Shown: one piece after another, positions 33,807 to 51,886 of the stretch
Numbering within the stretch: the stretch's first letter is position 1
How the letters are laid out: every line of letters starts with the position of its first letter
Assembly (NCBI GenBank): GCA_965237415.1
Contig: CBDEFM010000002.1
Location: 3,552,001 to 3,616,000 of the forward strand
Length of the DNA stretch: 64,000 bases
DNA from: Alphaproteobacteria bacterium
GTDB lineage: Bacteria > Pseudomonadota > Alphaproteobacteria > UBA828
Direction of reading: 5' to 3'
Made by a program: the position numbers and the translations under genes
Notes under the pieces: model-generated
Databases searched by the model: none
The model's input: the letters and a program-made list of their open reading frames with translations, nothing else
What the model was told of the DNA's origin: nothing

Positions 33807-34018
33807 TTGGAAGGCGACGTGACGCTGACTTGGACCGAGCCTCGCGCGGGCGATATCGCCGGACGGGCGCGAGCGCTGCAAAGCATGGTCAGCGCCGGTA
33901 TGCCGCTCGACCAAGCCGCATCCGCTTCCGGTATTCTAATTGTCGTCGACGGGTAGGTTAAAGGGTAAGGCGGGCGGGCACTCCAGCATCCGCCAAAAAA
34001 CATTCACTGTTTGAGCGC

Positions 34019-34759
34019 TCACGCTGGGCGCATGCGACCCGCTATCCGCGCGGCGGCCGAGGTAAGGTCAAGAAAATTAACCTGGACTTCAGGATCTCGG
34101 GTAATAAGTGGCTGGAGAATAGAGAAATAGCACAATACCAAATCATCTAGTGGCGAAAAATTACTCCAATCGTAGTACCTAATATTTGTGAAATCTTTTG
34201 AGTGCTCTGTCAAAAACTCTTCCAGTGTTCCGGTAAAATCCACTAGACCGTCGTGCTGAAATTTTTTCCATGACTCTCTCGCCTCATCTTGTGCCTTTCT
34301 TGCCTCATTCGCGTCCCTAGTCACCTGACACTGAAGTTGAGATCATTTTCAATTGGCAGTGTCGTCACACTAAGTCGCTCTATTGTCGAAGAATGTGGTC
34401 GTGCAATATAGTTGTCTTTATGTGGCGAACTTCAGATTCAGGTGACTAGCATCTACGGTCAAAGACCAAAACAATTCATCTAACTCGTGCCAGTGTTCGT
34501 ATTGACCCTGAACGTGCAAGTGCCGCTTCAACGATTTCAAGGCAAGCTCGATCGCCAAGGGATACATCACAAACAGAATTTGCGACATCCCAACCATTTC
34601 TTGTTCTTCTCTCGTTCGGCGGCCCACTGTAGATATGGTTCGTGAACCGCCTCCCAGCCGTTGTGCCAGCTGTTCCTTCAGCCAGTACAGTGCGGACCCC
34701 AATTCGAGTGTCCGCAATCCGTTGACTCGATCTGAGGGAGCCGAAGCTGTTGTTGTCAT
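34019..34759 (-). pseudogene. HEPN-like protein gene interrupted by a MITE
   Basis: AIELALKS..HWHELDELF and DFTNIRY motifs; removing 34321-34449 restores one 203-aa ORF. Confidence 0.7.
34321..34445. mobile_element. 125-bp MITE with CTAG target duplication
   Basis: TIRs TCACCTGAcaCTGAAGTT / AACTTCAGatTCAGGTGA (16/18); CTAG at 34317-34320 and 34446-34449. Confidence 0.85.
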
Positions 34760-34935
34760 CGCGGCAACCTCATCTTGTTTCAATAGGGTGGTTTCAGATC
34801 GCGTCAAACAAGCGCCCGTTTCTCAAGCGTGCCATCCACTCGGCGATTCCGTCCACGGGGGCAGTTGCCTCGCGTGAGGCAATTCGGCGCTGGTCACTTT
34901 CGGCTCCATAGCCAACAACGGCTGGAGTTGAGTTT

Positions 34936-35217
34936 TCACTTCTTGCCTAGCGAAACGTAGAACTCATCCATACCGGCGCAGAGCTCTTTCGCGGTCTGCC
35001 TCCTCGCCTTGTCAGAGATTCGCCTGCACGCCTCGTTCAGTGCAGAGCTCAGGTCGTCATGAAGCGATCCTATACCATCAAGTCCCACCCCATATTGCCT
35101 AGTCGTTTGATTAACCGAGATCTTTGCAGAAATTCCCTTCCCCGACACCGTCATCTCGCAATCATCGGGTTTGCTCACGATGAACTTCTCACCGTCGTAC
35201 ACGTGTTCCGTTGTCAT
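34936..35217 (-). CDS. Hypothetical protein (93 aa)
   Basis: ATG with GGAG RBS; plausible composition; no motif recognised. Confidence 0.55.
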   Translation of the reverse strand: MTTEHVYDGEKFIVSKPDDCEMTVSGKGISAKISVNQTTRQYGVGLDGIGSLHDDLSSALNEACRRISDKARRQTAKELCAGMDEFYVSLGKK

Positions 35218-35296
35218 GGTCGCTCCGCTCGTCGCGATGTGCCTACATGGTGCCGACATGGCGTTTTCGACCCTCCGCCGAAATCCACCTAACCCA

Positions 35297-35351
35297 TTGA
35301 AAAGATTGGTGGGCGCACTAGGACTCGAACCTAGGACCCGCTGATTAAGAG
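35297..35351 (-). repeat. attR: duplicated 3' half of tRNA-Lys
   Basis: 55 bp identical to 51801-51855; starts at the anticodon loop CTCTTAA. Confidence 0.95.
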
Positions 35352-35427: not shown

Positions 35428-35533
35428 TCAGGTGGGATAGGCGGTTTCGAAGGTCAGGGTGTGCAGTGAGTGATCGTGACATTACTTCAGTTTGTTGACT
35501 TTGGTGTTGATCAGATGCGGGCGATGCACCAAC

Positions 35534-36772
35534 ATGGGTCGCATGGGCGAGACCATTGGAAAGCGCGTGGCGAGGGTGAAGCTGACCCTCAGCAAGCGGA
35601 ACATCGACAACCTCGAGGCTGGGAACAAGCCCTGGATCGCGTGGGACGACAAGCTGACCGGCTTCGGGATGAAGGTGTATCCCTCGGGCAAGAAGTCCTT
35701 TGTGGTGAATTACCGCAGCGGAGAGGGGAGTCGGAAGGATCGCAACAATCGTGTCGTCATTGGGCACTACGGCAGGATAAGTGCGGAGGAGGGGCGACGG
35801 CGCGCCCACAAGCTGCTTGGTGAGGTTGCCAGCGGCGGCGACCCAGCGGAAGAACGCGCCGAAGCCCGTCGCATGCCGCTGCTTTCCGAGGCCTTCGAGG
35901 ACTACATGGCGGTCAATCCAAACCGGAAGGCACGCACGAATGAGGACTATCGGAAAGTCTTCAGGCGTTATCTCAGCGACTGGGGGAAGCGTGCCCTGGA
36001 CGCCATTACCCGACAGGACGTGGAGGCCCGCTTCAACAGTCTGACCGTCGAAAGCGGTTGGGCTTCAGCCAACCAAGCCATATCGCTATTGCGTTCGGTG
36101 TATCGACGGCCTTGCGTCGACATCGAGGGGTTACGCAGCCCGGTCGACCTGTGGCTGGCCGGTGGTGGCAAGTTCCATCGAAATGTGCGGCGCAAGATTT
36201 CGTCGCCGGCCGAAGTGCTGCCGCGTTGGCGGATGGGTATCGAGGCCGCGGTGGAAAATCGCGTGATGAGAGACACGCTGTGGTTTGGGGTCTACACCGG
36301 TATGCGCCTCAACGAGGTCCTTCCGCTGCGCTGGGAGAGCGTGGATCGGGATGGCCGGGTCTTCCGGGTTGACGAAACCAAGACGGGGGTTCCGCTTGAA
36401 CTGCCCATTACCCGTCAGGTCGGAACGGTTTTGGATCGTCGTTGGGCGGAGAACGGCGATCAGCAGGGCGGCTGGGTATTTCCATCCCGTCGCAGCGGCA
36501 CGGGGCACATCATAGGCGTGAACAACTATTACGCGGCGATCGGCAAGGCCGGGGGCGCGAAGTTCTGGTATCACGCGCTGCGCAACTGCTTCATTACGAT
36601 CGCTGAACGGGACCTGATGATCGCTCACACCCTGACCAAGCGGCTGGTCAACCATGTCCCGCCGAGGGATGTGACCGAAGGGTACGCAGCAGATTGGACA
36701 ATTGACCAATTGCGTGAGCCTGCCCAAAGGATTGCCGACCGAATCGAGATCCTGATGGGGAAAGGGCTGTGA
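35534..36772 (+). CDS. Tyrosine integrase with N-terminal arm-binding domain
   Basis: WDDKLTGFG arm domain; TGMR, HALR, LVNH, EGY catalytic residues. Confidence 0.93.
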   Translation: MGRMGETIGKRVARVKLTLSKRNIDNLEAGNKPWIAWDDKLTGFGMKVYPSGKKSFVVNYRSGEGSRKDRNNRVVIGHYGRISAEEGRRRAHKLLGEVASGGDPAEERAEARRMPLLSEAFEDYMAVNPNRKARTNEDYRKVFRRYLSDWGKRALDAITRQDVEARFNSLTVESGWASANQAISLLRSVYRRPCVDIEGLRSPVDLWLAGGGKFHRNVRRKISSPAEVLPRWRMGIEAAVENRVMRDTLWFGVYTGMRLNEVLPLRWESVDRDGRVFRVDETKTGVPLELPITRQVGTVLDRRWAENGDQQGGWVFPSRRSGTGHIIGVNNYYAAIGKAGGAKFWYHALRNCFITIAERDLMIAHTLTKRLVNHVPPRDVTEGYAADWTIDQLREPAQRIADRIEILMGKGL

Positions 36773-37073: not shown

Positions 37074-38540
37074 GTAAAGTTGAGAGCACCCCAGGGCAGA
37101 GCTGACGTTTTTGTTCGGTCACGGCGTGATGAAGGGCCGCACGGGGTGACGGAGGACCATGATCTCACCGGTTGAGAGTGCGCCGCCAGTCCTTTCGGAG
37201 GGGGCGGAGCCAGATGTCCCTCTTCGGTTGATCCCGTCTGGTGTGTCGGTCGTAGCGGCCCCGTCCCTTGGTGGTTCCGACGAGGGTCCAGCCGGACGCC
37301 TTGTATAGCGCGCCGGTGAAGCGCGGGGTCTCGACGAAGGTCTCGATGAGCACGGGCGTGGTGTTGTAGCGCTCGGTCCAGTCGTCGGGCAGTTGGCGGC
37401 GGACCAGGGAGAGGATGTGCGAGCCCAGGTTCGGGATCGCGATCCAGGGCAGGATCAGGAACCTCGGGTTGTCGATCACGAGCGGAAGGTTCTTCTCGCG
37501 CAGTTGCGGCGTCCATCCGATGAAGCTGTCGCGGGGCGCGAGCTTGCGTGCCGCTGTGCTGAAGCCGAGCATGGCGAGCGGCCCGCCGTCGCGGTCATGG
37601 ACGACGTAGCGCATCTGGGCGCCGACCAGGGTCTTGTATCCGAGGTAGTGGTAGCGGGCGATGAACTCGTTCCAGCGCTTGCCCTCGCGGGTGTAGCGCA
37701 TGACGGGGCGAAGGCTGAGCGGGCGGACCTCATCGAGCGTTGTCGGCGGCGGGAACGGCGGCGGTTCGGTGTCCGGTCCGAAGACCATCGGCCGGCGCGG
37801 GGGGCGTGGCCATTTCGGCGGCGGCAGCGTGATCAGGCCGTCGTTGTACATGGCCAGCATCGTGACCCTGGCCATCATGTCCTTGAGTCCGCCGTCGGGC
37901 TTGAACCAGCCGATGCGCCGGCAGAACTCCCTCGACAGTGCATGGCGGTTGGGCGGCGGGTCGGCGGCAATCAGCGCACGCAGCAGCGCCATCTCCCCGG
38001 TGGTGAAGTGTCGCCCGTAGTAGCGGCACTCGACGTCGGAGGTCATCCCGGCGCCATCAGAGCGCGCCTGCGTTCCTCGCTCATGGACCATGGAAGCCAT
38101 GGCGACAGGTCGTCTGGCGGTTGGCCGCCATTATTCGCGCAAGCTTGAAGCCACGCCTCCAGCCAGCGCCGGACATCGATGCCGTTGGTCTTCAGCGTGG
38201 CGACGACGGAGTACATCAGCGCGGTGAACCGCGCGCCAGTCTCGCTGTCGGATCCGAAGCTCAGCCGTCTTCCGATGACCGGGCCCCTGAGCGCGCGCTC
38301 GGCGGCATTATTGTCCATGGGCACCTGGGGCTTGTCGACGAAGACGCTCAGCCCGTCGCGATGGTTGAGCAGCGAGCGCAGGGCCTTGGTCTCACGCGCC
38401 CCGGCCGGCAGGGCGGCGAGTTCCCGCTCGGCGGTTGCGAACAGGCGCTCGACCTCCACTTCCAACGCGCCCTGCGCTTGCGCGAACGCCGCCGTCTGGC
38501 GCTCGAGAGCGGGGTCGTAATGCTCCAACCTCGCCTCGTT
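37074..38540 (-). mobile_element. IS66-family remnant (C-terminal tnpC + DUF4338 + end)
   Basis: PMDNNAAERALRG..R..SFGS motif at 38043-38540; GTAAAGTTGAG terminus at 37074. Confidence 0.78.
37165..38046 (-). CDS. DUF4338-family protein (passenger of an IS66-like element)
   Basis: YHYLGY..VGAQMRY, RDSFIGW, RFLILPW, ETFV, GTTKGRG; ATGA-coupled to the transposase. Confidence 0.82.
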   Translation of the reverse strand: MTSDVECRYYGRHFTTGEMALLRALIAADPPPNRHALSREFCRRIGWFKPDGGLKDMMARVTMLAMYNDGLITLPPPKWPRPPRRPMVFGPDTEPPPFPPPTTLDEVRPLSLRPVMRYTREGKRWNEFIARYHYLGYKTLVGAQMRYVVHDRDGGPLAMLGFSTAARKLAPRDSFIGWTPQLREKNLPLVIDNPRFLILPWIAIPNLGSHILSLVRRQLPDDWTERYNTTPVLIETFVETPRFTGALYKASGWTLVGTTKGRGRYDRHTRRDQPKRDIWLRPLRKDWRRTLNR

Positions 38541-40517: not shown

Positions 40518-42167
40518 TCAGCCGAATTCTCTGGGGTCCACACGATCCGCGAAGCGGCGCTCCAACTCACCTTCACCGTTGCAAGCTGGGCAGTCATTCC
40601 CGAGAAAATGACGTTTTCCATTGCAGAGGGGGCATTCGATAGACTGATAATCCTGCACCTCGATTCTATCTAGGTCTCGACGATCAATCTGTGCCTCGCC
40701 GCTGCAAACTGGGCAATCGTCGCCCTTACGTCTTCCTTGGCCGTCACACACGGGACAATCGACTTTCTGGTAATCTTGAAGTTCGACCGCTTCAGCGAAT
40801 CGCCGCTGCATACTTCCTTCCCCGCCGCATTCAGGACAGTCTCGGTCCTCGTAACTACCCGCACCATCACAGAGGGGACATTCGATCGACTGATAATCCT
40901 GCACCTCGATTCTATCTAGGTCTCCACGGTCAATCTGTGCCTCGCCGCGGCAAGCTGGGCAATCGTCTCCCATATATCTTCCTTGGCCGTCACACACGGG
41001 ACAATTGACTTTCTGGTAATCTTGAAGTTCGACCGCTTCAGCGAAGCGCTGCTGCATACTTCCTTTCCCGCCACATTCAGGACAGTCTCGGTGCTCGTAA
41101 CGACCCGCACCATCGCAGAGGGGACAGGCGACATCTTCGTAGTCCCGCACGTCAATGCTATTGGCGTAGCGTCGGGCCATCCGAGCCTCTCCGTCGCAGG
41201 CGGGGCAAGGTTCTTGCGTCAGGGTCCCCATGCCCTCGCAAACGGGGCAGTCAACGTACCCGTACTCTCTAAGGTCGATTACCTTGGCAAGTCTCGGCTC
41301 AATCTCACGATCTCCGTTACATACAGGGCAGTCGGTTCCCTCATGTTGGCCGCCACTCTCACAAAGCGGGCAGGTCACGAAGCCAAAGGCCGCAACATAC
41401 TTCTTTCGAATCTTCTCTGCCCTTTTAAGACGCTTCACTATGTTTGACTTGCTTTTCGACAACGAGATCGCGTCTGCGGATATCGTCTCGTAAACAGCAT
41501 ACTTTGGATCAGTCTCGGATACAGGAGCGAGCCCCGGAAGGGCAGCGAGCGTCTCCTTTGCAAGTTTCTTTACTGCCTTAATCTGTTCCTTTGTTTTGGC
41601 TCTTTTTAGCTGCTTTTTAAGGCCATTACAGTTCTCCAATACGTAGAAAAGTTGGTGGCTAACTTCATGCTGTGTACGCCAGAGCATTACCCGATAACGT
41701 CGCAGTGCTTGCTTGAAGATGGCGACGAAAAAAGCGTTTTCTTTATCGGGACCGAACAGTCCATTGTCGTAAGCGACATGGTGGTTGGCGCAGAGCCACA
41801 AGAGATTTTCTGGATGGTTATTGTCGCTCTTTGCAACCGGGTCCAGGTGTGCCGCTTCACAAGTATCCTTATGACTGTGACAAACGGCGCACTCGCCGTT
41901 TGCCTCTTGCTTGATCTCGCGCCTAATGCCGGTGGGGATGTGAGGGCGTCGTCCGTCTTTGCGAGGCCACGGCCGCTTCAGCCAGTTGTTGAAATCGAGA
42001 ACCTCTTCTTCATCGAAAAACAAGGTATCGTTCTTGATCTTCGCAGCTTTGAGTTTTCGTTTACTGCCGTGCTTCGGGGAGTACGAGGTAAGCCACCGCA
42101 GCAATGTTGGTGACATCGCTGTCAAAGCCGCTGCCTCGTACTCGCTGATGAGAGTTTTCTTGACCAT
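40518..42167 (-). CDS. HTH-HNH nuclease with seven 41-aa CxxCxG zinc-ribbon repeats
   Basis: CAVC..EAAHLDP..N.PENLLWLCANHH; repeats in the C-terminal half. Confidence 0.85.
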   Translation of the reverse strand: MVKKTLISEYEAAALTAMSPTLLRWLTSYSPKHGSKRKLKAAKIKNDTLFFDEEEVLDFNNWLKRPWPRKDGRRPHIPTGIRREIKQEANGECAVCHSHKDTCEAAHLDPVAKSDNNHPENLLWLCANHHVAYDNGLFGPDKENAFFVAIFKQALRRYRVMLWRTQHEVSHQLFYVLENCNGLKKQLKRAKTKEQIKAVKKLAKETLAALPGLAPVSETDPKYAVYETISADAISLSKSKSNIVKRLKRAEKIRKKYVAAFGFVTCPLCESGGQHEGTDCPVCNGDREIEPRLAKVIDLREYGYVDCPVCEGMGTLTQEPCPACDGEARMARRYANSIDVRDYEDVACPLCDGAGRYEHRDCPECGGKGSMQQRFAEAVELQDYQKVNCPVCDGQGRYMGDDCPACRGEAQIDRGDLDRIEVQDYQSIECPLCDGAGSYEDRDCPECGGEGSMQRRFAEAVELQDYQKVDCPVCDGQGRRKGDDCPVCSGEAQIDRRDLDRIEVQDYQSIECPLCNGKRHFLGNDCPACNGEGELERRFADRVDPREFG

Positions 42168-42544
42168 TGTACGAAACACTGTAAGTGAATGATTACGAAA
42201 CGGATTTTGACGAGTCTAGATTTCCTCTATATTTCTCGATCGCAGACTTCACAATGCCGACGACCTTGGTCAGGAATGTCCGAGCTTGTAGTCTCAGGAC
42301 TGGTCTGACCGGCGAAATGTTATCCTCGTATGGGCGGCAGATTACTGTAGCACGGCGGGAAACCGAATTGTAACCGGGATCGGTGTAAGCAGTCATCCAA
42401 TCGTTGCGGCGCTGATCAGCAAGCCGTTTCTTCAGGAGGTCAAGCAGGGCGTTGATCGATGAACAGCGCCTCGATCGCCGTTGCATCTTGGCCGAGACGG
42501 CAACGTTCCACCGCGATCCGCATTCTAAAATGGCTGCAGGCCAC

Positions 42545-42970: not shown

Positions 42971-43630
42971 TCAGCGAGTGGGCGAAGATTCCGCAGCGAT
43001 CGCCAGATCACCGTCGATGCTGTCACCAATACGGGCAGCAGACGCCTTGACGGTGTCGCGAGCGAGGTGGGCATAGCGGGCCGTCGTCTGAACCTGGGTG
43101 TGACCCAGCAGCTTCCCGATCATTGGCAATCCTTCGCCGAGCGCCAGTGCGCGCGAGGCGAAGCTGTGGCGCAGGTCGTGGATCCGCACATCGTCGAGCT
43201 CAGCGCGCGCACGGATACGCCTCCAAGGATGCTGAAGGTCGGTCAAATGGCTGCCCGGCTTTTTGCCTGCGATCACCCAACAGTTGTCCTCGTCGCGGGG
43301 CAGGGACTCCAGGAGCCGCACTGCGGACGGGGCAAGCGGAACCGCCCGCCCCCCGGTCTTGGCGTCGGGAAGCCGCAGCTCGCCCGCCTCCAGGTCAACA
43401 TGCTCCCACTGTAGCTTCTGGATCTCCGACAACCGGCAACCGGTCAGCATCAGCAGGCGAATCGCCACCAACGCGGAGCGGGACTCCGAACCTTCCTGGA
43501 GAATCTCGTCCAGCACGCGCCCGAGACGGGCGAACTCCTCGGCACTCAGGAAGCGCTCGCGCTTCTCCTCCCTGTAGCGCTTGACGTGTAGACATGGGTT
43601 CGAGCCGTCGGGACGGAGGCCCCACATGCC
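42971..43630 (-). pseudogene. Tyrosine integrase, 5'-truncated
   Basis: TGCRLSEI, HDLRHSFAS, LGHTQVQTTARY; no arm domain. Confidence 0.85.
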
Positions 43631-43675
43631 AGCGGCCGATCTCATAGAGACTATGTCCTGCCTTAGAGCACCACG

Positions 43676-45601
43676 CTACCAAGCCGCACTTTCCAACGCG
43701 GCCTCTGCTACCGCGCAGTAGCGCGCCAGGGCTGGCTCTGCGCGAACGAGACGACGAATACTGTGAAGTAACCGCGTCGATGATTCCTTTCCCTCAACTT
43801 CGAATGCAAGTTCGCTGATCCATTCGCCGGCGAAAGAAGCCCAATTCTCCAACTTCTCGTTTGACGCAGCAGCCAACATAGCGATGCGTATTTGATCCTC
43901 CGCCTCAACGGTCAATCGTTTCCTGCGCCGCATGACCCGATCCAATACCCGCAGCTCTTCCGCAAGGTCCGTGCTCCGAGTAACCGCGGCTACCGTCGCC
44001 AAGCCTCCAATCAACCCGAATAGATTATCATCACTGTCGGCGATTTCAATGGAGTACTTCACTCTACGCAGCGCAGTAGCGGCTAACCCCGCATGACTGG
44101 CGGGCATGCCAAATAGACTAGCCAGGTTCACAAGTCTGGCGAACGAATGTGGTTCCAAGTACTCTGATTTCAGATCGCTTGCCACGTCTTCCAACACATC
44201 GTCAGAGATAGTAGGCACTTCTGACTTAGCTTCCCCCTCCAAAGGTCCAGGAAGCATTCGGAAAGGCCAATCGACCGCGGTCGCCAATCTTGACTCCTCT
44301 CCAACCACGAGGCAGCGCAGCGATTCAGACTTGATTCCCTTCTGCCATCTCTCCACTGCGTTTGAAATTCGGCCCATAAACTCTGCACGCAATTGATATG
44401 GACTAACAAAATCCGGCAACCACCGAGGCTCCAGGCGCAAATCTACCAAGCCCTGTAAGAAGAATACATTGCCGAACCCGCTCGTTTTGGCCCAGTCGAC
44501 AATGGACTCCGCTTTTTCTTCACTTGCATATATTGCGCGAATGATCAGCGAAGCCTGTGCAATAGCCGCCTGCTTTCGGTAAAAGGGTTGAACCTGCCCC
44601 AGCACATGCCTGCGGCTAAGTTCCGATCCAACGAGTACGACGATGGCCGAGAGTAGTGAAAAGCGCCCGCCTTTGTGTTCCGGATCATCCGAGATGAACG
44701 CTTCAATAATCCGCTCAACAAATGGTTCAAGCTCCCTATGCTCCTCAATACTACGAAGTGCCACTTCCACTGCACCCAGCTGCGAAATAGGGTCCCCATG
44801 GTCTGCTAGCCATTCGTACGCCCCTAACAACTCCTGTGAGCTAAACCCCTCAATCCCTATACGCGCCGCTATAGTGCCTGCCGAACACATCAACAGCGAA
44901 TAGAGAAACCCACTAGTAGAATTCCACTTCTGAAGATCGCAGATGAGCTGCGCCGCTCCACCGTTGATGTACTCGTCAGTATTAGAAGCCGAACCTAGGG
45001 AACCAATGAGAAGGTCATAGTACCGCGTTTCGCCTTGCACTAGTGTACCCAGGTCGACACGCCTTTGGGAAAAACCGGACCCAATGTTCTCAAAGGTGCT
45101 AACGGGTGTAAGTGTCAGCGCTTCACGCAACCGCGCGAACTCGTCATCACTCAGCGGTCTGCTAGCCAACCTCTCCATCCATTGCTGTCGTTCACTCCTG
45201 TCAAAATTGACACGCTCTGCAATTTCGTTGAACCAAGAAACCCGAATCTCCTTCTCCTTTGCTAATCCGGAGTGGTCTTCAAGAAGAAATTGGCTACCGG
45301 CGTCCGCGAGCACAAAGGACCAGCTAGAAGCTTTGGCTCGTGCGGTAAGTCGCCACAAGTTGCCCTTGTCGTCCTGAATAGTGACTTCCTCTTCAGGACG
45401 GCCAATGGCTTCTCGCATACCACGGTACAACTCCTCTCGTCGAAAGCACGGCCCATCTTTCCCAATTGCTACACCAGCTGTAGCATTTAGCTCCCAATGA
45501 TCGACGAACTCCTGGTCATCCAGCAGGGATCTCCGCAAGCAAGGAGCCAGGAATCCAAAGGCGGCCACTACTAAGGAATGCTTCGTACGGCTATTGGTCA
45601 T
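43676..45601 (-). CDS. Unknown 641-aa protein, coupled to the upstream large gene
   Basis: Long lower-GC ORF with an 11-bp overlap; appears helical; no motif recognised. Confidence 0.8.
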   Translation of the reverse strand: MTNSRTKHSLVVAAFGFLAPCLRRSLLDDQEFVDHWELNATAGVAIGKDGPCFRREELYRGMREAIGRPEEEVTIQDDKGNLWRLTARAKASSWSFVLADAGSQFLLEDHSGLAKEKEIRVSWFNEIAERVNFDRSERQQWMERLASRPLSDDEFARLREALTLTPVSTFENIGSGFSQRRVDLGTLVQGETRYYDLLIGSLGSASNTDEYINGGAAQLICDLQKWNSTSGFLYSLLMCSAGTIAARIGIEGFSSQELLGAYEWLADHGDPISQLGAVEVALRSIEEHRELEPFVERIIEAFISDDPEHKGGRFSLLSAIVVLVGSELSRRHVLGQVQPFYRKQAAIAQASLIIRAIYASEEKAESIVDWAKTSGFGNVFFLQGLVDLRLEPRWLPDFVSPYQLRAEFMGRISNAVERWQKGIKSESLRCLVVGEESRLATAVDWPFRMLPGPLEGEAKSEVPTISDDVLEDVASDLKSEYLEPHSFARLVNLASLFGMPASHAGLAATALRRVKYSIEIADSDDNLFGLIGGLATVAAVTRSTDLAEELRVLDRVMRRRKRLTVEAEDQIRIAMLAAASNEKLENWASFAGEWISELAFEVEGKESSTRLLHSIRRLVRAEPALARYCAVAEAALESAAW

Positions 45602-48600
45602 CGTTGGTCTCTAAAAGTTGTTCACAAGCGTCCACGCTATCGGCGACATATTCCTTTGCCCAAGTCAACAGATGCTCGTAAGTCTCAGGGTCTTCTTCTC
45701 GCACCGACTCGAGAATGCGTGTTTCAAACCAGCGCCAGTAGGCTTCCTTTACCGATTGCGGAGGCTCCACGAGCAACGACATCAACATCCAAATCCAATT
45801 CCTGTATCGTTCCATATGCTGGTCGAGGTTGTCGTCTAAACGATGTGCCCAGCCCCTTGGATCGGCTAAAGTAAGCAACCAGTCAGATCGCGCCGCAGCG
45901 GTGGCCTCGTCCATCTCGCCAATCCACTGTTCCCTCAAGCTAAACAGGCACGCCTGATTTACTCCGTTCAGCCACTCTCGCTCGCTTGGAAGCTGAAGCA
46001 TATTACTCATTTGCACCCGTTGGATACTCTCTCGAATAGCCTTAAGCTCTCCGGTCTCCTCTAGAACGCCGTCTCGGACATTGCTACTGGACACTAGCTC
46101 ATTCAATTCGTCGGCATATAATGGTGTCAGAGCGAAGTTTGCCCGTCGCAAAGTGGTAAGAGCATCTTGTTGTTGTGTCTCTGAAATAGCACCGCGTTCC
46201 AGTAAGATGTCCAGCAGATCGATCATAGTGATTATAGGGCGGGAGGTAGTGTCTAGAGTAATAGACCTGTGACGGTTTACATAGCGGTCATCAACCACCC
46301 CTATATCTGAGTCTGTCATTAATTGCAGCAAGTCGATAGTGGGATGCGAGGATATACTTGGTGAATCATCATCGTTCCCACGGCGGGGCGCCTTCCCCAG
46401 ACGAATCTTCTCGCTTTCAAGGCTTTCCCGCAAGCGGACGCGAAGGCGATCCACCATTGAAACCACATCACCAGCACTTGCATCGTAAGAAATTAGAGAG
46501 TCCGCTTCTTCAACGTCTTGGTGTGATACAAATGCCGTTATCTCAGCGCGATGAAGTTTCGGGAGCAGGCCAAGAAAGTGTAGATGTGACGTGGACAAGC
46601 TGTCAAGATAGAGCACCGCCCCATCTCTAATCTCCGGCTCAGTCGGCCATGGTCTTTCTCGAATGTTCAGAGAGGCGTATGCGCTCTCTTGCTCTCGCCG
46701 GGTCAAAACGCCCTTTTCTGCAAGCTTTTTCACTAAGGTGGAACAGCTGCAAAGATGATCCTGGTACTCGCTGATGTCGACCTCTTGCTGCATAAAGGAG
46801 CTAATCTTGTGAATAGGGCCTCCACGTACAACCAGTCGCTGTCTTTCATCCAAGTGTTGTGTCGAAGAAGCCGCGGCAATGAAAGCAGCCAATGATCCTC
46901 CTAGTTCGGTGACCAACTTTTCTGGCGCGGCAGCACTCTCGTCAAAAACACGTAAGTGGCCTTCCGATATCATCGTTCGGAGTTCGCGGGCAGCAAGCAC
47001 ACGGCTCGGCTGATGGAACAAGATTCGTGCCTTTTCTCCCAAAAGCCATCCGAGGGTGCTATGAGGGATTACGATGCTATCGAACGTATCAATGCACTCG
47101 TCAAATAGATTTAGAAACTCCAAAGCTATAAGTGTCGTTGCATCCATCGAAACAACGTCGGCCCTTACCGTGACTGCTTCTCGGGCTCCACTAAATGCAT
47201 ATATAAATGGTCGGCGGCGAACGTCCGACTCGTGCACATTAGTCAGCGCGGGCATCAAATACAGGCTAAGCAAGGACCGGTTCAGCGCTTGTGCTGCAGC
47301 GAACAGCGGAATTTCGCCTCTTTCAAGTAATTCCCAGACACGTTCCTCATGCCCCTCCCAGTCCGGCTTTCTCTTAAGTAGATCATCAATCGTCGCTACC
47401 TGCACAGGCCCTTTGGGGCCTGAGAGTTCTGCTGCTCGCTGTATCCACGAGTGTACTTCAGCGGCATCTTCCCAGCCGCCTGTTGAAGCCAGATGATAAC
47501 TGCCTACCAATATTGTTGGATCGTCCATCGAGCGACTCGCCGCTTCCTTGATCAGATCCCTTCCCCGGCCCGCACCAATATGCTGTGCGATCTCACCAGC
47601 TCGGAGAAGATCGGTGGGCGTACGATCAGCCCGGGCAAGCCATTCAGCTTCTACAAAACCCTGAAGCGACTCCCAATCTCCCGATACCACTGCCAAGCTA
47701 ACCTGTAGATGACGAGCATCCGGCGAATCTTTCAATTGACGAAGTGCACCGACAGCTACCAATGCATCGTTCAGCTTGCCACACTCAAGATATGTCTGTG
47801 CTCGCAATAGTCGCATATCGGTATCTTGAGACCAGAGCGCAGGATATGTCTCAAGCACTGTGATCACTTTTTGAGGCTGCTCGCAATTGTGCAAAGAAAT
47901 CACATATCGACGCACATCTTCAAGATCTCCTCCAACTTCAACAAGGGTCTTGCCGTGCTCGCAGGCTTTCCTCCAATCACCCGCGTCTTCGTATGCTCTC
48001 ACGAGCAAACGCAATTCGATGATTGACGTATTCTCGTTATATGCTGCCAGTCTCTCCGCGATGGGATCCGCGCCGGAGGTCTCTGACAGTTCGCGACGAA
48101 GACGAGCGACGTCTCGTGCGGACAATGGCTTTCCCGCAGCTTCTTCCAGTAATTCCTCGGCCTTTGCAGTTTGTCCCGCATTAGCCAACATTTCGATTTC
48201 AATAAAATAAAGCCCCCTGGGGTCAAGATGCTTAAAGAGTTGCTCCCGGTGTTCGTTGATATAGGCTGCGATATCTGCATGGCTGCCCTTGCTTAGGGCT
48301 AAGGCCAGTCGTGCGATTGCGGCATCCCGCGACATACCTCCACTGAGGGCAGTCTGCCGAGTAACCTCGGCTTCGGCCCGCTCTATATCTATACTCACGC
48401 CAAACTGCAGTCCCAGGCTAAGTCGGCGCAGAAACGTTGAAGGGTCATTGACACTCTCAAGCAGTTCCTGACGCGCGTCTGCGGAGTACTCCGGGTCCAC
48501 CAGCCGTAACCAAAGCGCCCTGTCCTCCGCTAGCCCTGCCATTCCCATTAGACCGAGCGACTTCGCAACGTTATGCAATTGATCGTACAGTTGAATGGCT

Positions 48601-50228
48601 GTTCGTCGATGCTGGATGGCGAGCGGTTCACTGCGCAAGGGAAACTTCACAGCATCAAACGGCATGTCTTGAGCCAAAAACGTTTCCCGTAGTTCGTCCG
48701 GTACCGCCTGCAAAAGAAGGGCATCTGCGCTTGCTGCAAGTAGCCCTGGCGTTTCCTCCCAATCGTTCGGCGTCAAAACTCCCGCCATATCAAACGCTAG
48801 GTTCCAACTTCCCTCCTGCAAAGCGCTTCGAATATAGGAGAACTTGCCATGGCCATCGAGATCGGCGAACGTTAGTCCAGCCTCATCCAACCACGTATTC
48901 GCACTCTTGAAGCCCCTTGCTCCGAGTACCTGAATGTATGCGGCCCCGTAAGCTACTGGCGTTCCAATGCCACAAAGCTCACGTATCGCGTCGGGTATAT
49001 CACCTTTGAGTGACTTCACAACGCTTCGAGCAATGTTGTAAACTTCGCTATTGGCGGTTCCGATGCGGTTCACGAGCGACTCTGCTTCATCGAGATCGCT
49101 TCCAGCAAGAAAGCGGCAGCACCAAGAGAGCGCTGTATCTTTGTGTTCTTCGTTCGCCTGCGCGAGATCACCGCCCTCGAGATTAGCAACAAGGCTCTTC
49201 ACTTCGTCTATTACTAGAAACTCAGAAAAGTATCGGCATTTGCGGATACGTTCCAGCCGGCGGTCAACTTCTGTGTCGATTATTGAGGCGTGAGAACCGT
49301 GCATTGCGGGCCCTAGAGTGATGGCACCTCGCATATCCGAAAACGCTGCAATCTGGCCTTTGGTGAGCGAAACAAGCTCTTGAAGCTGGTCAGTGTTTCT
49401 TTCAAGAACTTGATCAGGACGCGTTACCTGAAGTGGCGGATCAAAGGAGCGGCGTATGAATTCCCGCACATGGATATAGACCTCAGCCTCTTTATTAGTT
49501 GGTTTGCATATACTCATATGGTCTTGGTCAACAGGGATGGGTGTCTCGGGCAAACCGGCGTCTGCACTCTCGGTTGTCACGATTTTCCCTATCGCGGTTG
49601 GCAGCTGAATGCCGAATACTCCAGATGGCTTTCCCTCAGAGAGGAGTAAGTTTCCCATGTTATTGTTCATACTGTGGTGTCTATACCAATGATTTAGATC
49701 GCGAAGTTGAGAACTACCCAAAATCAAGTCGTTCGTCACTTCGGATGGCCTAATCAAGGGCCATAACATTCTTGACAGGTTTGCCAAGAGAGCGCCTCGA
49801 TGAGGTGTTCCGAGGAAAGCTATGCGCTTTACACGGACCAGGAAATTTCGTGCTCTCGGGTTTGTGCCTGATTCTCTCTCCGCATTACGTAGAATTTGCT
49901 TTGCGACCAGCCCGCCAAGACTGTGAGCAACGAAGATAATATTGCCGCCTGCAAGCCCTGATTCTGCCAATAGGAGAGCCAAGATGCTGTCTGCACGTTC
50001 TGGAATAGAGATTCCAGTTCCACCCCAATATGTTTTTGCAGCCGGGTATCCCACAAGCCATAGATCGATGTCGGGAATATCGTCTTCCAACCGGAGGGGC
50101 CATAGCTCTGTAGAGTTATCAGTCGTAGTTGTCCAAGTTCTCTCAATATGTCCTGAAAGCCCGTGGATGAATAAAACGTGTGTCTCTACATTCGTAGCCT
50201 TTGTTGAGATGGTGCGTAGGATGGACAA
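45591..50228 (-). CDS. 1545-aa alpha/beta hydrolase - TPR-like - PIN-like protein (putative defence)
   Basis: FIHGLSG, AHSLGG, FLGTPHRG, DHMSICK; helical repeats; SMDATTL..IVIP and VVDDR; TTG start with GGAG. Confidence 0.82.
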   Translation of the reverse strand: MSILRTISTKATNVETHVLFIHGLSGHIERTWTTTTDNSTELWPLRLEDDIPDIDLWLVGYPAAKTYWGGTGISIPERADSILALLLAESGLAGGNIIFVAHSLGGLVAKQILRNAERESGTNPRARNFLVRVKRIAFLGTPHRGALLANLSRMLWPLIRPSEVTNDLILGSSQLRDLNHWYRHHSMNNNMGNLLLSEGKPSGVFGIQLPTAIGKIVTTESADAGLPETPIPVDQDHMSICKPTNKEAEVYIHVREFIRRSFDPPLQVTRPDQVLERNTDQLQELVSLTKGQIAAFSDMRGAITLGPAMHGSHASIIDTEVDRRLERIRKCRYFSEFLVIDEVKSLVANLEGGDLAQANEEHKDTALSWCCRFLAGSDLDEAESLVNRIGTANSEVYNIARSVVKSLKGDIPDAIRELCGIGTPVAYGAAYIQVLGARGFKSANTWLDEAGLTFADLDGHGKFSYIRSALQEGSWNLAFDMAGVLTPNDWEETPGLLAASADALLLQAVPDELRETFLAQDMPFDAVKFPLRSEPLAIQHRRTAIQLYDQLHNVAKSLGLMGMAGLAEDRALWLRLVDPEYSADARQELLESVNDPSTFLRRLSLGLQFGVSIDIERAEAEVTRQTALSGGMSRDAAIARLALALSKGSHADIAAYINEHREQLFKHLDPRGLYFIEIEMLANAGQTAKAEELLEEAAGKPLSARDVARLRRELSETSGADPIAERLAAYNENTSIIELRLLVRAYEDAGDWRKACEHGKTLVEVGGDLEDVRRYVISLHNCEQPQKVITVLETYPALWSQDTDMRLLRAQTYLECGKLNDALVAVGALRQLKDSPDARHLQVSLAVVSGDWESLQGFVEAEWLARADRTPTDLLRAGEIAQHIGAGRGRDLIKEAASRSMDDPTILVGSYHLASTGGWEDAAEVHSWIQRAAELSGPKGPVQVATIDDLLKRKPDWEGHEERVWELLERGEIPLFAAAQALNRSLLSLYLMPALTNVHESDVRRRPFIYAFSGAREAVTVRADVVSMDATTLIALEFLNLFDECIDTFDSIVIPHSTLGWLLGEKARILFHQPSRVLAARELRTMISEGHLRVFDESAAAPEKLVTELGGSLAAFIAAASSTQHLDERQRLVVRGGPIHKISSFMQQEVDISEYQDHLCSCSTLVKKLAEKGVLTRREQESAYASLNIRERPWPTEPEIRDGAVLYLDSLSTSHLHFLGLLPKLHRAEITAFVSHQDVEEADSLISYDASAGDVVSMVDRLRVRLRESLESEKIRLGKAPRRGNDDDSPSISSHPTIDLLQLMTDSDIGVVDDRYVNRHRSITLDTTSRPIITMIDLLDILLERGAISETQQQDALTTLRRANFALTPLYADELNELVSSSNVRDGVLEETGELKAIRESIQRVQMSNMLQLPSEREWLNGVNQACLFSLREQWIGEMDEATAAARSDWLLTLADPRGWAHRLDDNLDQHMERYRNWIWMLMSLLVEPPQSVKEAYWRWFETRILESVREEDPETYEHLLTWAKEYVADSVDACEQLLETNDDQ

Positions 50229-50592: not shown

Positions 50593-50910
50593 CTAGCGAA
50601 CCGTATCTACCTTGAGATGAAGTCGTTCGCGATCCTGAAGGCAGGCAATGACCTCGAATAGGTTTCGAGCTTGGGGATTCCCGTTGGGACTGAACATGCG
50701 CATCAAGCTCTTTGGCGACTTCTCAGTCAGGCCGCCCAGCGCTTGAAAGCCGATCGTGGCGTTGATGTAGTCGCGCAAAACCGCCTTGCCGGTGTCAATG
50801 TCTCCCGACAGCAGGCATTCGACCCCCTCCTTGAGCAGCTCTTCCCGGAAAGCTGGATCGCGGTCGCTACGCGCCTTGATCGTTTCCTTGAAGTCGCGTG
50901 TCAGAGACAT
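50593..50910 (-). CDS. Antitoxin / DNA-binding protein of a TA pair
   Basis: LTRDFKETI, LRDYINATIGF, SPKSLMRM..GNP. Confidence 0.85.
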   Translation of the reverse strand: MSLTRDFKETIKARSDRDPAFREELLKEGVECLLSGDIDTGKAVLRDYINATIGFQALGGLTEKSPKSLMRMFSPNGNPQARNLFEVIACLQDRERLHLKVDTVR

Positions 50911-50915
50911 GGCTC

Positions 50916-51245
50916 TCAGGCCTCCCGTCGTTTGCGCCGCTTGTAGTCCTGCCAATGACTTCGTGCGGTTTCGATGTCCTGCCGCTGGTGCCTCTTGGTG
51001 CCTCCGCCCAACAGAATGACCAGCGTCTCGCCGTCCTTGCCAAAATATATCCGATAGCCGGGACCGAAATCGATACGGTGCTCGAATACACCGGCGCCGA
51101 CACCCTTGACGCCGGAAAGATTCCCCAGCTCCAACCTTACTAGGGCTGTTGTCACCTTTGCCGCGGCCGGCGAGTTGAGCCGATTGAACCATCTCGCATA
51201 AGGGCTGCGGCCCTCAAGGTCGACATATTCCCTGACTGCGATCAT
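50916..51245 (-). CDS. RelE/ParE-family toxin (addiction module killer type)
   Basis: RLELGN..VKGVG.GV.E.RIDFGPGYRIYFG, LLGGGTK..Q..DI. Confidence 0.9.
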   Translation of the reverse strand: MIAVREYVDLEGRSPYARWFNRLNSPAAAKVTTALVRLELGNLSGVKGVGAGVFEHRIDFGPGYRIYFGKDGETLVILLGGGTKRHQRQDIETARSHWQDYKRRKRREA

Positions 51246-51320: not shown

Positions 51321-51569
51321 CTATCCCGCCACTTGTGCAATCCTGCTGGCAATGCGGTTCGCGGCCGATTTGACGGGATCGTTGGCGAGATGAGCGTAGC
51401 GGGCGGTGGTCTGCACCTGGGTATGGCCGAGCAGCTTGCCGATCATTGGCAAGCCTTCGCCGACCAGGAGCCCGCCGCTGGCGAACGAGTGGCAAAGGTC
51501 GTGGATCCGGACGTCCTTGAGTTCGGCCCGCGCCCGGATGCGCCGCCAGGGGTGCTGAAGGTCGATGAG
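51321..51569 (-). pseudogene. Tyrosine integrase C-terminal remnant
   Basis: DLQHPWRRIRARAEL..HDLCHSFAS..LGHTQVQTTARYAHL; paralog of 42971-43630. Confidence 0.85.
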
Positions 51570-51810
51570 CGGAAGGTGAACTGGATGCTGAACTGTGCCG
51601 TGGGGACATCGAGATTTGCCGCTGCTGGGGCCACGGCCTTCCCTGAACCCCGTCCGATAGCTGTCGGATTGGCCCGGCGCAGTCGCTACCGCTGTCCATC
51701 CAGGATCAGAGAATGACCGGATCTGACCGCACCTCGTGGAGACTTGTTGACTTTTAGTTGACTTCGCTCAACATCGCATGATCGGTGATCGGATAACCCC
51801 TTGAAAAGAT

Positions 51811-51886
<76 letters not shown>

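Follow-up and report, generated by a model that had tools for sequence, protein, structure and literature searches.

A split double-PIN and permuted GreAB-C gene pair on an alphaproteobacterial tRNA-Lys island, probably a member of the TGP class of predicted anti-phage systems

The window analyzed here, a stretch of 64,000 nucleotides (nt) from an alphaproteobacterium (assembly GCA_965237415.1, contig CBDEFM010000002.1, positions 3,552,001 to 3,616,000), contains two adjacent genes, here called gene A and gene B, that are read from the same strand (Table 1). According to the list of open reading frames (ORFs), the two reading frames share 11 nt, in agreement with a preliminary description of this DNA, made from its letters alone, which had reported overlapping ORFs of 1545 and 641 amino acids (aa) and had proposed that they form a two-gene defence system. 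We find that the pair is probably an intact two-gene member of the double-PIN/permuted GreAB-C branch of the TPR-GreA/B-C-PIN (TGP) class, an RNA polymerase-monitoring abortive-infection system. The basis of this reading is the domain make-up of the two proteins, the linkage and fusion of their genes, the swapping of the N-terminal effector, the conservation of catalytic residues and a mobile, defence-rich context.

Table 1. Features of the gene pair and of the surrounding island, with positions in the window (HTH, helix-turn-helix).
Feature	Position	Strand	Remark
Gene A	45591-50228	-	1545-aa ORF, TTG start
Gene A, putative alpha/beta-hydrolase effector, aa 18-266	49431-50177	-	DUF676/PGAP1-like; Ser103, Asp223 or Asp234, His237
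Gene A, constant helical region, aa 316-940	47409-49283	-	TPR_14, TPR_19; TPR/PPR-like at least over aa about 672-834
Gene A, HTH, aa 947-1016	47181-47390	-	PF24407 'HTH_upstream_double_PIN'; strongest Pfam match of gene A
Gene A, predicted PIN repeat 1, aa about 1022-1195	46644-47165	-	D1029, E1065, D1151
Gene A, predicted PIN repeat 2, aa about 1200-1365	46134-46631	-	D1209, D1260, D1313-D1314, D1337
Gene A, C-terminal helical domain, aa 1366-1545	45594-46133	-	Secondary structure of the model
Gene B (partner)	43676-45601	-	641-aa ORF
Gene B, beta-rich domain, aa 43-107	45281-45475	-	PF24388 'Permuted GreAB-C'
Gene B, alpha-solenoid, aa 117-641	43679-45253	-	Invariant motifs at 387-396 and 451-456
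tRNA-Lys(CTT), island integration site	51811-51886	-	ARAGORN; sole tRNA found
Distal att-like copy of the tRNA 3' part	35290-35351	n/a	Direct repeat
Intact integrase of the island	35492-36772
Integrase C-terminal remnant	42971-43645	-	Phage_integrase 6.5e-24
Second integrase remnant, adjoining the tRNA	about 51350-51564	-	Direct repeat family D2
Putative toxin-antitoxin pair adjoining the system	50593-51245	-	Weak family match

Domain composition of the two proteins

The N-terminal part of the gene A product was matched by the PADLOC model DUF626_VIII (aa 19-266, 4e-27) and weakly by the Pfam families DUF676, Abhydrolase_6 and PGAP1, with DUF676 scoring above its cut-off in all four of the gene-A homologs scanned. 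The hydrolase motifs HGL, AHSLGG, GTPHRG and DH, which the preliminary description had picked out, are present, and their conservation was counted over 23 hydrolase-type sequences (gene A and 22 homologs). The nucleophile S103 in AHSLGG, residues T141, P142, H143 and G145 of the TPHxG motif, D234 and H237 were each retained in 23 of 23, D223 in 22 of 23, and HGL at positions 22-24 in 20 of 23, the other three sequences having gaps there. PADLOC also returned a weak LmuA match at the nucleophile elbow of the hydrolase (aa 86-125, 4.9e-4), while the best match in a phmmer search of the hydrolase against the PDB had an E-value of 0.14.

The hydrolase is followed by a long helical region for which the preliminary description had proposed about 700 aa of TPR-like helices. 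Within gene A, TPR_14 reached 28.1 bits against a cut-off of 23.5, and a profile of the middle region (A3, aa 320-945) matched a designer PPR (4.8e-9) and a consensus TPR (4e-5) among PDB sequences at profile positions of about 353-515, corresponding to roughly aa 672-834, or some 160 of about 600 aa. The middle region thus appears TPR-like by sequence for this part of its length. The same type of search gave no match below an E-value of 0.44 for profile A1, and for profile A2 a non-significant best match of 0.022 to a 'Helicase/UvrB N-terminal domain-containing protein'.

The HTH model PF24407 matched gene A at 5e-25 (88 bits against a cut-off of 27) and matched all 49 aligned C-terminal regions of the family; in the AlphaFold2 model this region is helical. 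PF20698, the PIN model of the TPR-GreAB-C-PIN system, was found downstream of it in all 49 family members at E<=0.01 (best 3.4e-23). In gene A it aligns to repeat 1 (aa 1029-1067), in homologs it spans repeat 2 over profile positions 1-136 of 138 (for example at 2.7e-15 and 2.6e-15), and in locus L030 it aligns to two stretches. As the model aligns to either segment across the family, the two PIN-like segments of the preliminary description are best explained as two TGP-type PIN repeats. The acidic residues of both are strongly conserved: in repeat 1, D or E at 1029 in 49 of 49, E1065 in 49 of 49 and D1151 in 47 of 49; in repeat 2, D1209 in 45 of 49, E (40) or D (7) at position 1260, D1313 in 48, D1314 in 49 and D1337 in 45 of 49. 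The spacing of those in repeat 2 resembles that of VapC-type PIN domains. The AlphaFold2 model of aa 940-1545 (predicted local distance difference test, pLDDT, 88.1; predicted template modelling score, pTM, 0.82) comprises two alpha/beta units between a helical HTH region and a helical tail, and places the conserved acidic residues at strand ends. When this model was submitted to the VIA structure search, PIN domains led the results, and 11 of the 50 rows listed were titled PIN, PilT-N, VapBC or Nob1; their Z-values lie in a range that the tool rates as common and the aligned ranges cover both repeats, so the search supports a PIN fold without separating the two predicted repeats.

Gene B, which the preliminary description did not recognize, is probably the GreA/B-C-like module of the class: Pfam model PF24388 matched it at aa 47-98 (7.6e-6) and matched 17 of 20 partner family members (best 9.5e-15). 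The model of the partner (pLDDT 85.2, pTM 0.86) begins with helices, continues with strands and one helix at 43-107 and ends in an alpha-solenoid from 117 to 641; the VIA search with this model returned only helical-repeat rows, covering aa 395-641. The stretch at aa 450-461 of the partner (about 44219-44254) is one where the invariant P451-G456 adjoins the single loop that was modelled with low confidence, the rest of the model being confident, and this region could be a candidate binding or regulatory site. PADLOC 2.0.0 had no matching model for gene B.

Linkage, fusion and exchange of N-termini among relatives

A scan of one genome per species yielded 64 partner loci, and a gene-A homolog lies directly upstream of the partner in 57 of them. 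Five of the others are cut by a contig end just upstream, and in the remaining two (L021 and L049), which lack gene A, the partner match is itself partial. The gene-A homolog is a separate upstream ORF on the same strand in 54 of the 64 loci, whereas in L034, L038 and L063 the gene-A body was detected by tblastn and a single ORF of 1912-1942 aa runs through both parts. In the protein database, where the partner has 155 homologs at E<=1e-3, mostly of about 640 aa, we found 15 fused proteins of 1170-2280 aa that carry PF24407 and PF24388 together, one of which (2183 aa, with DUF676) is 56% identical to the partner. A fused paralog of 2127 aa is also encoded in the same genome (locus L068, 6939-13322; contig C2, about 2264938-2271321). 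It carries PF24407 and PF20698; its residues 268-1489 align to residues 316-1537 of gene A (29% identity, E 3e-154) and its residues 1508-2119 to residues 22-638 of gene B (22% identity, E 6e-38), such that about 19 residues separate the C-terminal domain of gene A from the partner-like region. Gene A and gene B are therefore one unit, and the co-occurrence that the preliminary description had proposed to check is borne out by the linked loci and the fused forms alike. The paralog is flanked by a SoFic-type gene (3.4e-120), a Ser/Thr kinase gene that matches the mad6 and PD-T4-6 models, and an IS66 transposase gene.

A complex prediction for aa 1190-1545 of gene A with gene B scored 0.59, versus 0.00 for the best of three controls; at least 48% of contacts were common to the runs, and the pLDDT of the partner is at least 78. 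Of 157 solved complexes, 116 reached the mark that this score passes, as did 2 of 215 mismatched pairs; only 18 of the 157, and both mismatches, did so with a score of 0.60 or under. Passes at or below 0.60 are wrong more often than right unless the pairing is likely beforehand. The co-folding check proposed in the preliminary description thus ended in a weak pass, which lends slight support to a contact between the two proteins. It adds little because the halves of the gene are fused elsewhere and the prior is already high.

Homologs align to gene A from close to residue 1 or only from about residue 315 onwards, which is where the constant body starts in homologs with other N-termini. We sorted the N-termini of the 57 linked loci, six of which could not be classified as they are contig-cut or frameshifted. 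A hydrolase is present in 28 of the 57, an HNH_2 domain in eight (four of them above cut-off), a PNP_UDP_1 domain in one, unassigned domains of about 105-210 aa in five, and a short N-terminus in nine. The HNH form matches the PADLOC Effector (CBASS-type) and SAVED-HNH models, the PNP form matches the PADLOC Effector model of the PN superfamily, and the N-terminus of the fused 2127-aa paralog matches PADLOC LmuA at 9.2e-13. In the short forms, a glycine- and asparagine-rich motif occupies the extreme N-terminus and spans roughly the first 25 residues of the sensor. Six of these nine loci carry, about 100 nt upstream, an ORF of 71-95 aa that encodes a hydrophobic helix and has the same motif at its C-terminal end (at about 4136-4300 in L028 and about 1415-1580 in L035, and at the start of the large gene in L046, L034, L038 and L063); the motif pattern had no other match in the six reading frames of those short-form loci. 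The N-terminus of the gene A family is a swappable output module, as the preliminary description had anticipated, with hydrolase, HNH, PNP, LmuA-like and short-motif forms.

The tRNA-Lys island and the neighbourhoods of related loci

The guanine-plus-cytosine (GC) content is 0.50-0.55 across 44-51 kb of the window versus 0.65-0.72 in the flanking core, which confirms the lower GC that the preliminary description had noted around the pair. The 3' part of the tRNA-Lys gene lies within a direct repeat of 62 nt, one copy of which is at 51794-51855 and the other, 98% identical, at the distal att-like position. These repeats, together with the intact integrase gene, delimit an integrated island of 16.5 kb, and the gene pair was acquired horizontally on it. 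The two integrase remnants that had been reported around the pair were recovered; they are 76% identical at the nucleotide level and lie inside the island, one on each side of the pair. The toxin-antitoxin pair proposed next to gene A is only weakly supported, with one ORF (50916-51245) giving a Gp49/HigB-like match that is weak and under cut-off (E 7e-4), and its neighbour (50593-51192) giving no family match.

The island further contains an ORF with a DruA domain, IS66 and Mu-transposase fragments, an AAA_14 fragment and a 553-aa HNH protein. The last of these (40518-42179, minus strand) combines an HNH_2 domain with four zinc-finger repeats of the DnaJ type (CXXCXGXG), includes a tandem duplication of 246 nt at 40618-41109, and matches the PADLOC candidate models PDC-M01B (3e-23) and HEC-08. 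The 311-aa ORF at 37165-38100 (minus strand) has a DruA (Druantia) domain at 5.2e-35 in Pfam, with only 9.8e-6 for DruA in PADLOC; it stands alone beside the IS66 and Mu-transposase fragments, and no further Druantia genes were seen nearby. Directly outside the att-bounded island, a second stretch of low GC (34001-35290, 0.50) contains small ORFs without a family match (34019-34324 and 34418-34807), and may be what is left of an earlier insertion into this tRNA gene.

Searches of 40 related genomes, 20 of them from the same genus, did not recover the partner, which is therefore accessory. Three plasmid records carry it, and on an Agrobacterium plasmid, where both genes are annotated by NCBI as 'hypothetical protein', the pair lies among VapBC, an integrase, an HsdR-N protein, SIR2 and an AAA ATPase. 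To describe the neighbourhoods more widely, the two nearest ORFs on each side of the pair were collected from 33 loci (127 ORFs, with L062, L063, L032 and L046 left out). By our own sorting into classes, defence-type families (AbiEii, AIPR, BrxL, AbiTii, type I restriction-modification twice, Eco57I, EcoRII, RVT, HipA and others) occur in 16 of the 33 loci, mobile-element markers in 11 and either of the two in 22, counts that are a description without a control or an enrichment test. No third conserved gene was seen, the nearest neighbours varying among loci with the exception of the small upstream ORF of the short forms. The protein adjoining the pair in Microvirga sesbaniae (L019, 11547-16499, minus strand) is 1650 aa long and joins an AAA_11/AAA_12 helicase and an MTES_1575 restriction-endonuclease domain to a standard GreA_GreB C-terminal domain (3.3e-7); it is another Gre-domain fusion in a defence-like context.

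The position of the pair on a mobile island, beside a putative toxin-antitoxin pair, would also suit an addiction or exclusion module that stabilizes the island, in which the partner would be the antidote to a toxin, either the hydrolase or a PIN domain. VapBC systems have PIN domains as their toxins, VapBC chains were among the VIA rows, and the overlapping two-gene layout resembles that of toxin-antitoxin operons. We nevertheless consider such a module very unlikely, as the proteins are far larger than toxin-antitoxin components, the fusion of the two halves in three loci, in 15 database proteins and in the paralog of the same genome is a poor fit with a labile antidote, and the swappable effector and the small membrane protein with its paired motif match defence sensors instead. 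It is hardly credible that the pair is a decaying passenger of an old island, devoid of present function. Integrase remnants and insertion sequence (IS) fragments do flank the genes, and frameshifts or fragmentation are seen in several homologous loci (L013, L015, L017, L026, L027, L043 and L050), but both ORFs are full length, aligning with their homologs over residues 1-1545 and 1-641, respectively, and every conserved catalytic residue is present in this copy.

Relation to known systems and proposed mode of action

The preliminary description had placed gene A among effector-TPR-PIN conflict proteins described computationally, and the matches to PF20698, TPR_14 and PF24407 uphold that placement. 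The TGP conflict system was described computationally by Kaur et al. 2021 (PMC8195603). In both that system and the family studied here, a variable effector at the N-terminus is joined to a constant and rapidly evolving body that contains TPR repeats, and the PIN belongs to the same family, PF20698; the family studied here also has a predicted domain of the GreA/B-C type, and HNH and PNPase effectors are common to the family and the published list. They differ in that the published form is a single protein with the order TPR, GreA/B-C, PIN, occurring 'mostly as standalone genes' (PMC8195603), whereas the order in the pair is TPR, HTH, PIN, PIN, helical domain, GreAB-C-like, an order that the fused forms keep. 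The pair thus has an HTH and two predicted PIN repeats, and its GreA/B-C-like domain is apparently permuted, follows the PIN repeats and sits on a second protein of 641 aa with a solenoid of its own. It lacks the defining arrangement of three modules in one chain in that order, and 54 of the 57 linked loci are split in the same way. The effectors named in the available portion of PMC8195603 do not include an alpha/beta-hydrolase, and the word 'permuted' occurs 0 times in the portion of its supplementary files that was available.

The Bab/Agp system of Escherichia coli ECOR25, which provides abortive-infection defence against T5 (bioRxiv 10.1101/2024.11.07.622273), is a further relative. Its defence requires both the N-terminal output and the GreA/B-C domain, T5-induced signalling is lost upon a mutation in this domain of Agp, and the TGP sensor signals to a small membrane-targeting protein by way of a shared amyloid motif (bioRxiv 10.1101/2024.11.07.622273). 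Like Bab/Agp as described there, the family probably has a TGP-class sensor with its output through the sensor N-terminus, and the relatives with short N-termini have the same layout, with a small upstream hydrophobic-helix protein sharing its C-terminal motif. Agp, in contrast, is one protein of 1094 aa that has one PIN domain and a GreA/B-C domain of the standard kind, while the pair has a fused hydrolase in place of the amyloid motif and a separate partner.

Other candidates were considered. The Pfam models PF24407 and PF24388 describe exactly the two hallmark domains of the pair, though they are domain models only. The N-terminal output modules match Lamassu LmuA or CBASS-type effectors in PADLOC, but the effector module is all that is common, as the pair has no SMC-like LmuB, cyclase or SAVED sensor; Lamassu was rejected because gene A gave only the weak LmuA match, and the partner is a solenoid without a PADLOC match and no SMC-like LmuB. 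Searches of Pfam, NCBIfam (in which no match came near any cut-off) and PADLOC found no P-loop NTPase family in either protein, and the Avs/STAND class, which the preliminary description had also discounted for want of a P-loop, was therefore rejected. As judged from its domains, the pair fits the double-PIN/permuted GreAB-C branch, in which the PF24407 HTH precedes two PIN repeats and PF24388 marks the partner. This branch is already catalogued at the domain level, with its function uncharacterized, and the split two-gene form is a variant of the TGP class. The novelty claimed in the preliminary description was thus overstated, since two Pfam families are named for this architecture and a relative, Bab/Agp, has already been shown to defend E. 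coli. In the literature search, we found no paper on the split double-PIN/permuted GreAB-C two-gene system, its fusions or its function.

In the TGP model of PMC8195603, the GreA/B-C domain binds the coiled coil of the beta-prime subunit at the secondary channel of RNA polymerase, the PIN domain cleaves the transcript, and the N-terminal effector triggers cell suicide if this first line fails. From the homology of the PIN and Gre-like modules and the logic of the architecture, we infer the same scheme for the pair, and with it, by analogy, RNA polymerase binding, RNA cleavage, a lipid substrate and protection against phage. Gene A would supply the swappable output, here a Ser-Asp-His hydrolase of lipase/esterase type, along with the TPR-like solenoid, HTH, two PIN repeats and helical tail, and gene B the GreA/B-C-like domain and a second solenoid; the two products would act as one complex, which in some relatives is a single polypeptide. 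The GreA/B-C-like domain may dock this complex on RNA polymerase, where the PIN repeats would cut RNA made during infection, and activation would unleash the hydrolase, most likely on membrane lipids, such that the infected cell is killed or arrested. A membrane-lipid substrate is suggested by the DUF676/PGAP1-type family and by the small membrane protein that occupies the same position in sister loci. While the preliminary description had the TPRs sensing infection, the partner is probably the Gre-like module of the class, and the published TGP model therefore puts sensing at RNA polymerase.

Several results weigh against the assignment to an RNA polymerase-monitoring TGP branch. The matches of gene A itself to PF20698 (19.7-23.1 bits) are under the gathering cut-off of 27.8, and that of gene B to PF24388 (25.9 bits) is 1.1 under its cut-off of 27. 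The GreA/B-C-like nature of the partner beta domain is suggested by the Pfam model alone: profile searches of PDB sequences returned no Gre factor, and an ESM Atlas search with aa 1-115 of the partner gave no usable match. The Foldseek search proposed in the preliminary description found no match in the PDB at E<=0.001 for either the partner model or the model of aa 940-1545. A phage collection contained no match to the partner, and the neighbour counts given above are uncontrolled. Four sequencing runs from two studies were listed as containing the sequence, none of them an RNA run. Finally, the Bab/Agp study found no effector-independent activity of the TGP protein (bioRxiv 10.1101/2024.11.07.622273), and RNA cleavage by the PIN as a first line is therefore unproven even there.

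This last result would also be expected if the same complex used another sensor, with the solenoids binding a phage protein directly, the Gre-like domain serving as an adaptor, the hydrolase as the sole killer and the PIN repeats as scaffolds or regulators. More than 1100 aa of helical repeats would offer a binding surface for this purpose, and the invariant partner residues 451-456 beside the low-confidence loop at 456-461 are what a binding site would look like. We regard this arrangement as unlikely, however, as the PIN acidic residues are retained in 45-49 of 49 sequences, which points to a catalytic or metal-binding role, most partners (17 of the 20) have preserved the GreA/B-C-like domain, and T5-induced signalling by Agp is lost on mutation of the corresponding domain.

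Within the TGP assignment that we favour, a more specific picture can be put forward tentatively, in which the pair is possibly a distinct two-protein machine that rides on RNA polymerase, cuts transcripts with tandem PIN repeats and carries a lipase as a kill switch, with sister loci acting instead through a membrane protein coupled by an amyloid-like motif. How a cell senses the takeover of its RNA polymerase by a phage is an open question. The TGP class provides the leading candidates for a direct sensor of this kind, of which Bab/Agp alone has been tested so far. The pair is well suited to this question: its predicted Gre-like module is on a separate protein, which makes deletion, tagging or titration of that module possible; controls are available as natural fusions, among them the paralog of the same genome; and its effector is a simple serine hydrolase that could be inactivated by one point mutation. 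The relatives with paired motifs suggest that amyloid-like signalling to a membrane protein extends beyond the Agp lineage. If the specific picture is true, the split, fused and motif-coupled forms would be natural dissection points, and the family would represent a second TGP lineage that couples the sensing of transcription hijack to membrane killing.

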